Positions 5,729 through 19,022 are shown, counted from the stretch's first letter. The stretch is 38,683 nt of DNA from a phage (GCA_033178465.1 GCA_033178465.1_4726.3); one strand, 5' to 3'. The notes: generated by a model from the sequence alone, not told the origin. A program made the numbers and translations.

Positions 5729-5775
5729 TGCGTACCTCAACGTTATACGTCGTTTGTATTATAATACGCTATCGT

Positions 5776-5799
5776 CTCCCCGCCTGTATTAACGGGGAG
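5776..5799 (-). terminator. intercistronic hairpin CTCCCCG-(10 nt)-CGGGGAG downstream of the terminase gene
   Basis: Perfect 7-bp stem, 10-nt loop, 15 nt past the terminase stop (5814); followed by the 12-bp palindrome GTATTATAATAC (5756..5767). No clear U-tract. Confidence 0.3.
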
Positions 5800-5813
5800 T
5801 CTGCAAACTACTC

Positions 5814-8045
5814 TTAGAAAAAACCGCCCGGACGGTATTGACCCATCGTCATCCACGCATTACGAGAAATATTCCGTTCATTCGAAGAGCGGCTTATTTG
5901 ACGATAAGTATTCGCTCGTTCCTCCCTTGCTTTCGTGATCATCGCATCAATAGAAACAGCCGCTGAATCTTCCCCACGTATTTTTCCTTTATACGTAAGA
6001 AGCTCTGCCTCCAATCGATCCAAGATAAGGCCGTTGGTTTCGGTCTTAAGCAACTCATAGATTTCAGCAACACGTTGACGAAGCTTCGCCTGCTGTTGGT
6101 TAAGATACGCTTCATACGGATCGATTTCACCCGTCACAGATGCCGGTAAACGACTCATGACTTTAAGTGGATCGATACCGTAATGGATCTGTTTCTTAGC
6201 ACGCTTGATGAACCACATCGCTAACATCCATGCGAACGTCATGTCATCGTGCATTCCATCCTGGTGGTCGACACGCCCATCTTTGATAACCAATCCAAGG
6301 ATCTCGGAACACAACATCTTATCACGTAATTGCCCGCGGGTTTCTACAATACCTTCCATCAAGATGTCGGAATACAACTCCATACGTTTGCGTGCATCCG
6401 TTGTGAAACCCAAATGCCGTTTACGTTGAGCGTACCAACTTTCATCACGCATGCTCAATGGTAATTTCAGGTCTTCGAACATCGCTGGATTATCAGCATG
6501 CCTGTCTACAATCGTGTTGTATACGCGTTTGAACACGTCGATGCCCGCTTGCCGCAAGAACTCTTCAATTGCGTCTAACAGCATGATTGCACTGCTTTTA
6601 CGTTCAGGAATCAACGTAACGTTCTTAAAACGCATCATGAAGTTGGCCATCCAACGAGCAAAAGAAAGCAGGCTCAGTTTATTAAAACGTCCCGTCGCGA
6701 CAACTTCTGCTGTTTCCACATCCACCATCACCAAACCGATAGCGTCACGACCGATCGCGTCACTGGTGTCTAAACCAGCAACCACCTTATTGTTCTGCAT
6801 GTATGTCTCGATTTGACCTCGAGGTATATACCAGTTAATGCAGTAGCCTTCAGGTGAGATCTCGATATGGTCGATTTCACGTTGTCCTGCCATGATCATC
6901 TCAACCATCTCAGCGGTTAACGGGCTTTCTGCTGAACCGTTGGTCCAAATGTTCATGTAGTCACGGTCTTTCTGAAGCTTATCACCTTCCGTTTCGTTCA
7001 TGGTTTTTGCTAACCATTCATCACTGAAGCCCAACTGAGCATGGTTCCATTGTGCCCCGATCCTGACGGTCGCTTTGCTGAGCTCGCACGGTACGTTGTT
7101 CAATACCGTCTGATGGAGATGCTTTTCATTACGGCAGTCAAAGAAACTTTCAGAGAACGGCGCTGAACGCATGAAAACTTCATAAGCCCATTTGCCTTCG
7201 CGTTTATCCAACTCACCTGCCGTTGTCGTATAGATGATACTTGTCAGGTCGCCGTTGCTTAATGCTTCATCGCGTGCCGCACCCATCGCACCGATACCAG
7301 CAGGAACAATGATTTCGATGTATTTCGTAAACGCGGTTTCGTCGCTATGGAATAGCGGGGTTGTTAGACCACGACCGATGTTCGTTGCTTGTTTCTTATC
7401 CGAACGTGGAATCTTTACCGACAGCTTGTTCTTGAAACGCGTGTAGGTCACGTTCTCTTTGTTCGATGAATCTCGACTATCCAGTGTCCAGAGATACGCA
7501 GGCAACAGATCGCGTATACTACGCACGTCTTCTACCGTTTTCGTACGGGCATCACCGTCTTTTGTTAACTGAATAACCTCGGTGTTTCGACTACGAACAT
7601 AGGTTAGATAACAAAACAATCCTAACATGGTCATGGATTTACCGGTCTGACGTATCTGTATCTGATACCAGTTCGTTCGGGTAAATATCCCCCAGAGCAT
7701 CGGAATGTTACCGCGGTTAGCACGGAATGAAATTTTGTTATCACCCGCTTTAGCCGGAACGCGCATCACTTCACGGAAGAAGTACCATGGATTAAGATAG
7801 CATTCCGCACTGATCATCTGAATCTGTTCTGACGTCAAATTCGGTGCGTGGGGATCAACACCAATCAATCTTGGGTTTAATAACGCCATGAAAAACGCAG
7901 AGTTCCGGACACCGAATTCACGACGATACAAGATCGCTAAATCACGCCAACTTGTGTTTGTTGTTTCCCAGTGTGGAACAGCCTGAGGAAAATAATCCCA
8001 ATCTTCCTCAAACAAGATGATTTTCTTCGGATCGACAATCGACAT
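5814..8045 (-). CDS. terL: terminase large subunit (743 aa)
   Basis: P-loop-like IRQTGKSMT near residue 125 (ATPase Walker A) and Asp-rich nuclease-type motifs in the C-terminal half (GLDTSDAIGRDAIGLVMVD, HQDGMHDDMTFAWMLA); size typical of TerL. ATG at 8043-8045 with GGAGGAG upstream. Confidence 0.75.
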   Translation of the reverse strand: MSIVDPKKIILFEEDWDYFPQAVPHWETTNTSWRDLAILYRREFGVRNSAFFMALLNPRLIGVDPHAPNLTSEQIQMISAECYLNPWYFFREVMRVPAKAGDNKISFRANRGNIPMLWGIFTRTNWYQIQIRQTGKSMTMLGLFCYLTYVRSRNTEVIQLTKDGDARTKTVEDVRSIRDLLPAYLWTLDSRDSSNKENVTYTRFKNKLSVKIPRSDKKQATNIGRGLTTPLFHSDETAFTKYIEIIVPAGIGAMGAARDEALSNGDLTSIIYTTTAGELDKREGKWAYEVFMRSAPFSESFFDCRNEKHLHQTVLNNVPCELSKATVRIGAQWNHAQLGFSDEWLAKTMNETEGDKLQKDRDYMNIWTNGSAESPLTAEMVEMIMAGQREIDHIEISPEGYCINWYIPRGQIETYMQNNKVVAGLDTSDAIGRDAIGLVMVDVETAEVVATGRFNKLSLLSFARWMANFMMRFKNVTLIPERKSSAIMLLDAIEEFLRQAGIDVFKRVYNTIVDRHADNPAMFEDLKLPLSMRDESWYAQRKRHLGFTTDARKRMELYSDILMEGIVETRGQLRDKMLCSEILGLVIKDGRVDHQDGMHDDMTFAWMLAMWFIKRAKKQIHYGIDPLKVMSRLPASVTGEIDPYEAYLNQQQAKLRQRVAEIYELLKTETNGLILDRLEAELLTYKGKIRGEDSAAVSIDAMITKAREERANTYRQISRSSNERNISRNAWMTMGQYRPGGFF

Positions 8046-16476: not shown

Positions 16477-16501
16477 CGTAAAAAAAAAGCATATTAACCA
16501 C

Positions 16502-16538
16502 CCTTCCTTCCCTAGCCGTCAAGGCCGGGGAAGGAAGG
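16502..16538. terminator. bidirectional intrinsic terminator CCTTCCTTCCC-(15 nt)-GGGAAGGAAGG
   Basis: Perfect 11-bp stem; A9 run upstream (16480..16488) and TTTATGGTTTATTT downstream, giving a U-tract on both strands; placed between convergent genes ending at 16476 (+) and 16551 (-). Confidence 0.6.
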
Positions 16539-16550
16539 TTTATGGTTTAT

Positions 16551-17090
16551 TTACTGTGTGTTCTTAGCTTCACGAATGAAAATAACATCAGGATATTCTT
16601 GGGATTCAATGAATTCAGGATTACGATAACGACGAATATGACGCATCGTTGTACAAGCAAGTTTGTAAAGATGTTCCTCCTCACGTTGTGTTAATAACAT
16701 CAGTTGCGCGTCTGGAATCACGAATGGGAGTCTTTCATTCACATATTCTCGAAGGTCATCGAGATCATCGTGATGAATGCCCTCTGAGAGCTTATATAAC
16801 GCTTCCAGCAATTCTAATCCACCGAACTGGTAACTTCCTATTGTCGTCGTAAACAATGCGCCAGAACGCGTGGTGGATGCTCTATCGGCGACATCGTATT
16901 GTTCTAACATATATCCGTAGACCATGCTACGTCGATCCAGTGTATCCGTAACGAGATTACGCCACCGTTCCAATCTTTCGAGCGCCTTGTCGATAGAGTA
17001 AACGATCATGCCATGTTCATCCAACTCTTCCGCAATACCCAATAGTTCATTGTTGTTAGGTTTTGCTGCACCGATAAGAAAAACACTCAT
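16551..17090 (-). CDS. hypothetical protein (179 aa)
   Basis: ORF with ATG at 17088-17090 and AAGGAG 9 nt upstream; start overlaps the stop of the upstream gene (TAATG). N-terminus MSVFLIGAAK looks like the first strand of a Rossmann-like fold; the function is unknown. Confidence 0.6.
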   Translation of the reverse strand: MSVFLIGAAKPNNNELLGIAEELDEHGMIVYSIDKALERLERWRNLVTDTLDRRSMVYGYMLEQYDVADRASTTRSGALFTTTIGSYQFGGLELLEALYKLSEGIHHDDLDDLREYVNERLPFVIPDAQLMLLTQREEEHLYKLACTTMRHIRRYRNPEFIESQEYPDVIFIREAKNTQ

Positions 17091-17503
17091 TACTCAAACT
17101 CCTTATTCCAAAACTCGATTAATGAATCGAGCTGTTCCTTACTGGTTATCTCACCTCCCCTAACAAAATGAAATCGTTCTTGAATGGCGATCTTTTCAAG
17201 GATATCGGTAAGCAAATGACGGTGACAGAAATTTCCTGCAGGACAATAACACCCTAACACCACAACCGGATGGGAGAATAAAGCCAACCATTCCGATGTA
17301 TGATCAACAAAGCTTTTGCGCATAAGCGCGTAGTAGCCTGTGGTATATTCATCCTCGGTTAACGTTTTTGATTTGATTCCTGTAACAAGTTCCCATGAAG
17401 GTGCGAAGAGCGGGTTACCTGTTTTCACCGTCGTGTCCAGTAGGAACGCTCGTGTGTCTGAAAGCCAACGATATTTGGCTAATTGAAGGGTGTATAAAAA
17501 CAC
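17090..17503 (-). CDS. DUF488-like small protein (about 137 aa, start uncertain)
   Basis: C-terminal VVLGCYCPAGNFCHRHLL matches my recollection of the LLCxC...CHR signature of DUF488 proteins, and LLDTTVKTGNPLFAPSWEL resembles the upstream DUF488 segment. The track start is GTG at 17503 with only a weak GGGG upstream; the first in-frame ATG is at about residue 61. Confidence 0.5.
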   Translation of the reverse strand: MFLYTLQLAKYRWLSDTRAFLLDTTVKTGNPLFAPSWELVTGIKSKTLTEDEYTTGYYALMRKSFVDHTSEWLALFSHPVVVLGCYCPAGNFCHRHLLTDILEKIAIQERFHFVRGGEITSKEQLDSLIEFWNKEFE

Positions 17504-17520
17504 AGCGCTAACCCCAAAGG

Positions 17521-17580
17521 ATAAAAATAAAACCTTGACATAACCACCACCGCAACCCCATACAGGGCTACGGTGGGGTC
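17521..17580 (-). terminator. candidate terminator after the 159-aa gene
   Basis: GC-rich imperfect hairpin (ACCCCA...TGGGGT or CCACCG...CGGTGG), followed on the minus strand by UUAUGUCAAGGUUUUAUUUUUAU. Confidence 0.35.
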
Positions 17581-17606
17581 ATACAGAGAGACGTGTTAAG
17601 TTACAA

Positions 17607-18086
17607 TCAGTCTTTCAGCAGCTCAGCCGCATACGCACTGATGTTGTCGCGAATATGCTTAACCTGAGTTGTTGGGAAAGATTTCTTATACGCGGTAGTC
17701 AGGCGTCCGTAAACCTGTTTCTTCTCGTTAGAGCCGAAACCAACTTCAGCGCTGCGCTGAACCGTTGCGGACACAACGTCTTTGCCCAGCGGCAGTGTTA
17801 CAGAAACAACGTCAACCTGCTTGTTATCCGCCATGAACTGCGCGCCAACGCGACCTACCGCCAGACCATGAGCCAGACCGATATCGGTGGTCAGTTTCTG
17901 TGCTTTTTCCAGGATTTCTTTTTCTTCCGGCGTTACCAGAGTACCCAGGAAATCACTACCTAACTTCTGGCTACCAGATTCGTCCAGTTTAATACCAGCG
18001 GCGATTTTATCAGAAAGAGCCTGAACTTCCGGACGTACGTTAGAAGTGGTTTCAGTCGCTACGGTGGTTTCTACAGCTTCAGACAT
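17607..18086 (-). CDS. hypothetical abundant protein (159 aa)
   Basis: ATG at 18084-18086 with GGAG upstream; codon usage as strongly optimised as the sheath and tube genes; monocistronic, with hairpins on both sides. Confidence 0.65.
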   Translation of the reverse strand: MSEAVETTVATETTSNVRPEVQALSDKIAAGIKLDESGSQKLGSDFLGTLVTPEEKEILEKAQKLTTDIGLAHGLAVGRVGAQFMADNKQVDVVSVTLPLGKDVVSATVQRSAEVGFGSNEKKQVYGRLTTAYKKSFPTTQVKHIRDNISAYAAELLKD

Positions 18087-18221
18087 GTTAATACTCCAAT
18101 TAGTTTTTTCGATCGATCAAAAGGATAAAATCAGAAGATTCTTTCTTCATAGGGAAAACACAAGTCGGTTAAGGTTTACTTCTTAAACTCCTTGCGTTCT
18201 ATCAGTTAGGTAATATAGACC

Positions 18222-19022
18222 TCAACTTTTTTCCAATAATGCCGCAACGTTCCGTGCGAAGCGAATCACCTTGTAATTGCGGGTCTGTTTGATATCTTCT
18301 TCCCCATCACTGTCACCTTCAGACGGATCTTCCCACATGAAGTCTTGTTCGTCCGCTTTCTGTAAGTAGCGGTATAACTGCACCATGCTGCGTGCGGTCG
18401 GAGAGATAGCGCGAAGCTCATCCAATTCTTCATCCGTGAGCAGAACATGCGGTGAACGCAGTGGTTCCATCGTCGTATTACACAACAGACGAATCAGCAG
18501 ATCGACACACGGAATAACAGAACCTGGTGAGGCGATTTCCGGATGTAACGTATAACCCCAATATACGGTGTTAAAATACGTCAAAACAGCAGGTAGTGAC
18601 GGATGTTCCATCGCACGGCCAATTTGTTGTCTTACGATAGATGCACGATCGTTCAATACATCGAAAGTAATCTGCTGCGGTTCCATAACCGCAAGTGAAA
18701 TACCGTATGCGTCAGCCACCCCCAGGATTTCATGGAGGGTCGAACGCTCTTCTTCGGCGGATATTGTCCCGATTGCTTTACGTCCTGCAAGGTCGATCAG
18801 CATCGGTGAAACAGCTTCTTTAACCGCATTAAAAGAAGCCTGGTAAGCGTGTTTATGAATATACAGTGTCCACGCTAATGCGCGCTCAGCCGCATGAAGC
18901 AGATCGACATATGACAGTTCTTGATGGCATGGGCCATACACACTCACAGCAAGCTTGGTGGCTTTCTCAGAGGCTTGCATAATAACATCTGGTGATTTAG
19001 GCATATCGCGTTCTTCTTGCAT
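18222..19022 (-). CDS. hypothetical protein (266 aa)
   Basis: ORF with ATG at 19020-19022 and AGGA upstream; acidic C-terminal tail (EDPSEGDSDGEED). Confidence 0.6.
   Translation of the reverse strand: MQEERDMPKSPDVIMQASEKATKLAVSVYGPCHQELSYVDLLHAAERALAWTLYIHKHAYQASFNAVKEAVSPMLIDLAGRKAIGTISAEEERSTLHEILGVADAYGISLAVMEPQQITFDVLNDRASIVRQQIGRAMEHPSLPAVLTYFNTVYWGYTLHPEIASPGSVIPCVDLLIRLLCNTTMEPLRSPHVLLTDEELDELRAISPTARSMVQLYRYLQKADEQDFMWEDPSEGDSDGEEDIKQTRNYKVIRFARNVAALLEKS

Follow-up and report, generated by a model that had tools for sequence, protein, structure and literature searches.

Between the tail genes and the gene of an abundant virion protein, the phage DNA analysed here (38,683 nucleotides, hereafter the window) carries two small genes on the same strand. 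The window is 98% identical to the jumbo phage Goslar, which infects E. coli, and both genes are annotated there as hypothetical proteins. What do they encode, and do their products act together in infection?

Layout and transcription of the locus

The original prediction placed a two-gene module at 16551-17503, and we found these coordinates to be exact, with both genes on the minus strand. The first gene (17503..17090) starts with GTG and encodes a DUF488-N3a protein of 137 aa that includes VVVLGCYCPAGNFCHRHLL; it is Goslar gp215 in RefSeq and Goslar_00220 in GenBank. The second (17090..16551) encodes an acidic orphan protein of 179 aa, the partner, which is Goslar gp216 in RefSeq and Goslar_00219 in GenBank. 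The TAA stop codon of gp215 and the ATG of gp216 have one base in common (GAGTAATGAGT). Read from the sequence, this TAATG stop/start overlap (17088..17092, minus strand) bears out the translational coupling that had been proposed for the pair, and the junction is unchanged in eight genomes of the Goslar type, drawn from three collections. Both open reading frames are real genes, as judged by the substitution pattern of gp216, gp216 peptides and RNA-seq reads for the two genes.

The pair had also been described as bounded by hairpins, and both of them fold strongly. Upstream, a terminator-like hairpin lies 3' of gp214 on the minus strand (17520..17584, stem 17537-17584) and is followed by the U-tract UUUUAUUUUU. 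The 111-nt stretch that holds this hairpin folds with -38.8 kcal/mol (z = -3.5), a value equalled by none of 200 shuffles, and equivalent hairpins were found 3' of the gp214 homologue in contigs L006 and L008, in which the synteny of gp214 is retained. Downstream, a bidirectional terminator-like hairpin (16480..16553, stem 16502-16538) separates the partner gene from the tail tube gene, which is convergent with it. Both strands have U/T runs here, and the folding energies are -36.5 kcal/mol on the minus strand (z = -6.4) and -33.3 kcal/mol on the plus strand (z = -4.8). The upstream cistron gp214 (17607..18086, minus strand) encodes an abundant virion protein of 159 aa.

The expression of these genes was assessed from published Goslar RNA-seq data, collected at 30 min with and without ChmA knock-down. 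The log2 fold changes on knock-down were +0.02, +0.06 and -0.22 for gp215 and -0.47, -0.21 and -0.38 for gp216, and about +1 for gp214. The convergent tail tube gene gp217 dropped about 30-fold (log2 fold changes of -5.4, -5.0 and -4.3). According to the authors of these data, transcripts that persist without the nucleus form an early, vesicle-transcribed class. On this basis gp215 and gp216, as well as gp214, are early-type genes whose transcription does not depend on the nucleus, in contrast to the tail genes next to them.

It is doubtful that the pair forms its own transcription unit, as had been suggested. The base of the upstream hairpin is only about 33 nt from the GTG start of gp215, about 16 nt of them past the U-tract, and we saw no promoter-like element in these 33 nt. 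The raw reads step down from about 930 in gp214 to about 420 in gp215 and about 346 in gp216, with the fall from 930 to 420 occurring across the hairpin 17537-17584. Because of the short gap, the missing promoter motif and the stepwise reads (930:420:346), read-through from the gp214 promoter is at least as likely as separate transcription. The locus is most economically read as one transcript of gp214, gp215 and gp216 that is attenuated at an internal terminator, probably the hairpin at 17520..17584. A sigma-70 promoter scan of the region gave no hit, and none would be expected since the phage has its own RNA polymerases.

A candidate early-type promoter motif, CTATATTACCTAACTGATAGAAC, was found upstream of gp214 (18198..18222, minus strand). 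The sole TATATTAC in the 38.7-kb window lies here, and resembles the phiKZ early-promoter consensus. It is part of the longer motif CTATATTACCTAA(C/G)TGATAGAAC at 18198-18222 on the minus strand, which Goslar-type loci keep and which also occurs before a different gene in a sister-clade contig (L007 700-722, plus strand). This recurrence makes it a candidate early promoter of the Goslar group; a search for the motif in literature text was unproductive. The spacer from the hairpin to the DUF488-N3a gene measures about 200 nt in the sister clades, so that a separate promoter is possible there.

The DUF488-N3a protein and its phiKZ orthologue

The gp215 protein scored 39.8 bits (E 6.6e-10) with the Pfam family PF22751 (DUF488-N3a, the 'active DUF488-N3 subclade'), whose cut-off is 27; the match covers residues 30-104 only, and the protein keeps the Cys/His/Arg motif of that subclade. 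Against the canonical DUF488 family PF04343 it stayed under the gathering score (16.6 vs 22.2 bits). The DUF488 signature noticed in the original prediction thus holds as a profile match to a derived subfamily and fails for the canonical family. The similarity to canonical DUF488 and to DUF4326 is weak and is that of the C-terminal motif region. Canonical DUF488 is exemplified by E. coli YeaO, and has, we assume, E where gp215 has C. The window protein is 97% identical to its Goslar counterpart and matched phrog_2450 at 2.8e-34, and PADLOC gave only a weak match (E 0.0017). Neither sequence nor profile searches returned a homologous solved structure.

We compared 12 diverse phage homologues and found 13 invariant positions (T5, Q7, K27, G29, P35, Y53, C85, C87, G90, H94, R95, L98 and E118). 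C93 is at least 90% conserved and is replaced by F in phage 4L372XY. All 12 homologues matched PF22751, compared with 4/12 for DUF488 and 4/12 for DUF4326 (E <= 0.1 for each). Several of the conserved residues fall in a putative strand-loop-helix element, G-C-Y-C-x-x-G-x-F-C-H-R. Its invariant Cys at the strand end, Gly in the loop and His-Arg at the start of the helix would fit a phosphate-binding loop. Burroughs & Aravind (2023, NAR Genom Bioinform 5:lqad029) reportedly placed the RapZ-C/DUF488/DUF4326 clade in the rhodanese-phosphatase superfamily by computational analysis, and are said to predict phosphate-transfer chemistry on sugars that belong to NAD derivatives, nucleotides or the ends of nucleic acids. 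Statements on DUF4326 from the Burroughs/Aravind group agree with that assignment.

The DUF488-N3a gene is among the more widespread small genes of obscure biochemistry in large virulent phages. Homologues were found by tblastn in 291 phage records, one copy per record, as stand-alone genes. The family spans phiKZ-like Pseudomonas phages, SPN3US-like phages and jumbo phages of Erwinia, Salmonella, Serratia, Klebsiella and Vibrio, and also smaller phages such as Aeromonas APT65 (85 kb), 4L372XY (124 kb) and Pseudoalteromonas J2-1 (142 kb); ICP1 matches gp215 in the motif region only. Its counts per genus are below those of the tail tube protein, with 3 vs 19 in Aeromonas and 9 vs 16 in Klebsiella; Ralstonia, with 13 for the tail tube, is missing from the ten genera given for DUF488-N3a. 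These lower counts, and the listing of the phiKZ gene under 'Non-core genome', show that DUF488-N3a is not a core gene of the Chimalliviridae. The five bacterial loci examined had housekeeping neighbours and were uninformative.

By sequence comparison, gp215 is the orthologue of phiKZ gp151 (PHIKZ151), with 44% identity over 103 aa (E 7e-31). The family of phiKZ gp151 and phiPA3 ORF174 (PHROG 2450) is homologous over the full length and shares motif and size class with gp215, and gp151 is likewise a small non-structural gene of a chimallivirus. The two differ in their neighbours, since gp151 is flanked by the gp152/Nlp1 recombinase upstream and by gp150 and the vRNAP gene gp149 downstream. They also differ in that phiKZ carries no homologue of the 179-aa partner and gp151 has no C-terminal tail.

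In the phiKZ antisense-oligomer screen that listed PHIKZ151 as non-core, its knock-down led to more plaques and more ChmA (sign '-' for both PFU/CFU and ChmA). The gain in PFU was about one order of magnitude (~10-fold), and strong effects on phage transcription were seen at 30 min. In the published top-hit table, silencing raises phage yield for PHIKZ151 and for just one more gene, the ribonucleotide reductase PHIKZ306, which is the other '-' entry. The authors of the screen took PHIKZ151 to counter-regulate infection or to alter host vulnerability. This phenotype may not transfer to Goslar, and could involve downstream genes such as PHIKZ150/149. In the phiKZ TnSeq data, transposons hit the 351 bp of PHIKZ151 at 11 sites (1380 reads), and hardly any reads map to the essential genes beside it. 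This tolerance of transposon insertions indicates that the family is dispensable in the laboratory and non-structural. We suggest that the DUF488-N3a gene probably encodes a widespread but non-core accessory enzyme with a modulatory role.

The original prediction also stated that DUF488 has no established function. This is correct at the experimental level, and a literature search on DUF488 returned incidental mentions only; the statement overlooks the published computational assignment to a superfamily and the knock-down phenotype of the phiKZ member. PHIKZ151 adjoins gp152 (Nlp1) at 5753-7192 of the phiKZ locus, and no equivalent neighbour occurs in the window. This recombinase was reported to be conditionally essential against the CBASS nuclease NucC.

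The 179-aa partner and its linkage to the DUF488-N3a gene

The partner and all 10 members of its family gave no match in Pfam, PHROGs, PADLOC or NCBIfam. It occurs in two phage records, both of them Goslar, compared with 291 for DUF488-N3a. A word-indexed search of 5.8 billion proteins placed the family in nine clusters, and a HMMER search over 1.84 billion representatives gave one true distant relative. Two repetitive proteins (P0009 and P0010) were rejected as compositional artefacts. In IMG/VR and the JGI metagenomes, the partner was found in Goslar-type genomes only. The family is made up of Goslar-type sequences (87-98% identity) and a sister group (30-33%), and in the collections searched the partner was found nowhere outside the Goslar clade.

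We then considered the fold of the partner. Searches of the PDB by single sequence and by profile returned chance or repeat artefacts only, and a PPR match was rejected as the sum of eight sub-threshold repeats. AlphaFold2 with the 10-sequence alignment gave a model with pLDDT 87.2 and pTM 0.83, compared with pLDDT 35 from the single sequence. The predicted structure is mixed alpha/beta and begins with strand-loop-helix. A Rossmann-like N-terminus had been proposed for this protein, but a Foldseek search of the model against PDB and BFVD found nothing at E <= 0.001 (TM <= 0.25) and hence no Rossmann-type match, so that this description is not supported. The modelled fold is a candidate new fold, with no detectable analogue in PDB and BFVD. 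The reading of the partner as a divergent or inactive DUF488 was also rejected: none of the 10 sequences matched PF22752, the inactive paralogue DUF488-N3i, at E <= 1, and hhalign of the partner and DUF488-N3a alignments (A2 vs A3) gave a probability of 0.2%.

The partner behaves as a maintained gene in the sequence comparisons. Goslar-type genomes differ in it by 24-33 synonymous vs 6-8 non-synonymous substitutions (dN/dS 0.05-0.08), which points to purifying selection. Its pI is 4.9 in the window and 4.7-5.4 across the family, and the invariant polar residues include E21, E22, E25, R39, W43, Y58, Q64, R75, H106, D108, D109, R150, Y155, S163, E165 and E174. In the same pairs of genomes (window vs L022 and L023), dS was several-fold higher in the partner (0.24-0.35) than in the DUF488-N3a gene (0.03-0.08). 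This contrast, which rests on small counts, may mark a recombination boundary near the junction.

We found a DUF488-N3a gene directly upstream of the partner and on the same strand in 16/16 loci, and nowhere in the collections searched did a partner homologue lie apart from a DUF488-N3a gene. The junction is TAATG in eight Goslar-type loci, a 15-nt spacer in one locus and a 23-nt spacer in seven, and each of the two spacers, which belong to sister clades, holds a Shine-Dalgarno sequence. A ninth sister-clade contig (L007) starts just upstream of the partner and keeps the stop-spacer-start arrangement. Identity between the partner-bearing lineages is 47-55% for the enzyme and 30-31% for the partner.

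Elsewhere, the neighbours of DUF488-N3a (in phiKZ/PA7, PhiEaH1, Eowyn, Proteus phage 10 and non-jumbo phages) differ and are mutually unrelated. The downstream neighbours in other phages were considered as cryptic partner homologues and rejected as unrelated. This marks the partnership as an acquisition of one clade rather than a property of the family. On the question whether the pair is conserved or variable among phages, then, it is not universal, and only its DUF488-N3a half is widespread. That half adds a member to a family that is already catalogued. Neither the partner nor the pairing seems to be described in the libraries searched, and the finding is one at the level of annotation.

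A tail of 13-18 residues follows the conserved GE[IL] end of the enzyme in 3/3 partner-bearing lineages and in 1/9 others. This weakly suggests that the tail could be a docking element for the partner. In the window the tail comprises residues 120-137 (17090-17143, minus strand), and the stand-alone exception is Klebsiella phage Eowyn.

Two further features were observed in the sister clade. Its gene calls shorten the DUF488-N3a gene to 92 aa (L008 2270-2674; L009-L014), and an upstream ATG or TTG start is needed for the full open reading frame of 132-134 aa. Because of these shortened calls, the precomputed annotation of L008-L014 shows no Pfam domain. The sister clade also has four small open reading frames between the partner and the tail tube gene (L008 3419-5114; L009-L014), whose lengths are 145, 117, 105 and 148 aa; Pfam matched none of them. 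This makes the segment from gp214 to the tail module a variable slot, in which the partner could be an independent insert.

Possible roles of the pair

We tentatively propose, with a confidence that stays somewhat short of even, that gp215 and gp216 are an early-type, non-structural accessory pair, formed by a DUF488-N3a enzyme and a coupled accessory subunit of the Goslar clade. gp215 would be a small cysteine-dependent enzyme of the rhodanese-phosphatase type. Its G-C-Y-C-x-x-G-x-F-C-H-R element would bind phosphate on a sugar and transfer or remove it, and possible substrates are nucleotides, metabolites derived from NAD/ADP-ribose and the ends of nucleic acids. The dispensable gp151 appears to act as a brake or tuner of phiKZ infection. 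gp216 would be translated from the gp215 mRNA through translational coupling and would serve as a lineage-specific accessory subunit of gp215, either as a regulator or as a substrate or target adaptor, and may dock on the C-terminal tail of the enzyme. We know of no PF22751 member with a known biochemical activity. The Goslar pair offers a tractable E. coli system with a built-in candidate interactor for finding the substrate of the family.

The same data could be explained if gp215 and gp216 were functionally independent, which we consider possible but on the unlikely side. gp216 would then be a moron-like, clade-specific gene in a variable slot, and TAATG a result of genome compaction. DUF488-N3a is solitary in other phage groups, with unrelated neighbours, the slot of the sister clade holds four more unrelated small open reading frames, and short overlaps with unrelated downstream open reading frames also occur in APT65, 4L372XY and J2-1. 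However, adjacency and order were kept in all 16 loci even though the partner diverged to 30% identity, and in the collections searched the partner homologue was never found apart from the DUF488-N3a gene.

Going further, gp216 might represent a new fold family that binds the gp215 tail and either gates the enzyme or redirects it, with nucleotides or nucleic-acid ends as the substrate. The pair would then be a lineage-specific brake or tuner acting before or outside the nucleus, a speculation to which we give a rather small chance.

Coupled phage enzyme/modulator or toxin-antitoxin pairs resemble the Goslar pair in having two small co-oriented genes, a stop/start overlap and an acidic second protein that evolves faster. 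An enzyme-inhibitor pair of this toxin-antidote-like kind, with acidic gp216 restraining a self-harming gp215 and the coupling fixing their stoichiometry, would agree with the consistently acidic partner family, with the coupled genes and faster evolution of the partner (30% vs 47-55% identity), and with the detrimental effect of the phiKZ enzyme on plaque yield. In contrast to toxin-antitoxin pairs, the 'toxin' homologue stands alone in most genomes, the enzyme having no such partner in most phages (291 records vs 2), and PADLOC gave nothing for gp216 beside the weak gp215 match. These observations make an inhibitor role of gp216 improbable.

It also seems improbable that gp215 is a Cys/His (zinc-type) nucleic-acid-binding regulator of phage transcription instead of an enzyme. 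C85, C87, C93 and H94 make a CCCH-like cluster, and such a regulator would be consistent with the strong change of phage transcript levels on PHIKZ151 knock-down. But C93 is not invariant, the cluster is incomplete in canonical DUF488, R95 and G90 are invariant and suit a phosphate-binding loop, and the subclade is labelled 'active' in Pfam.

Finally, we assessed the virion content. In mass spectrometry of CsCl-purified Goslar virions, the listed part of the proteome table gives gp216 with 4 peptides, 25% coverage and an estimate of 12-29 copies, which matches the value for thymidylate synthase, its neighbour in the same table. This suggests carry-over of a cytoplasmic protein; packaging at a low level is conceivable. 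gp215 has no entry among the rows listed. Neither protein is among the 28 structural proteins modelled in the Goslar cryoEM preprint. That both are minor virion proteins, structural or injected, as the gp216 peptides, the abundant neighbour gp214 and the location among tail and head genes might suggest, is extremely unlikely given this copy level, the listed rows, the cryoEM model and a nucleus-independent transcription unlike that of the adjacent tail genes. The earlier view of the pair as accessory rather than structural fits the ChmA-independent mRNAs, the trace level of gp216 and absence of gp215 in the listed rows, and the dispensable phiKZ orthologue.

The upstream gene differs from the pair in its virion content. 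gp214 is among the most abundant unmodelled virion proteins, with an estimated 576-1358 copies in the listed part of the same proteome. It is a cargo protein of the virion whose transcription is of the early type. Despite this abundance in virions, its mRNA was not reduced on nucleus knock-down and was slightly raised (log2 fold change of about +1).
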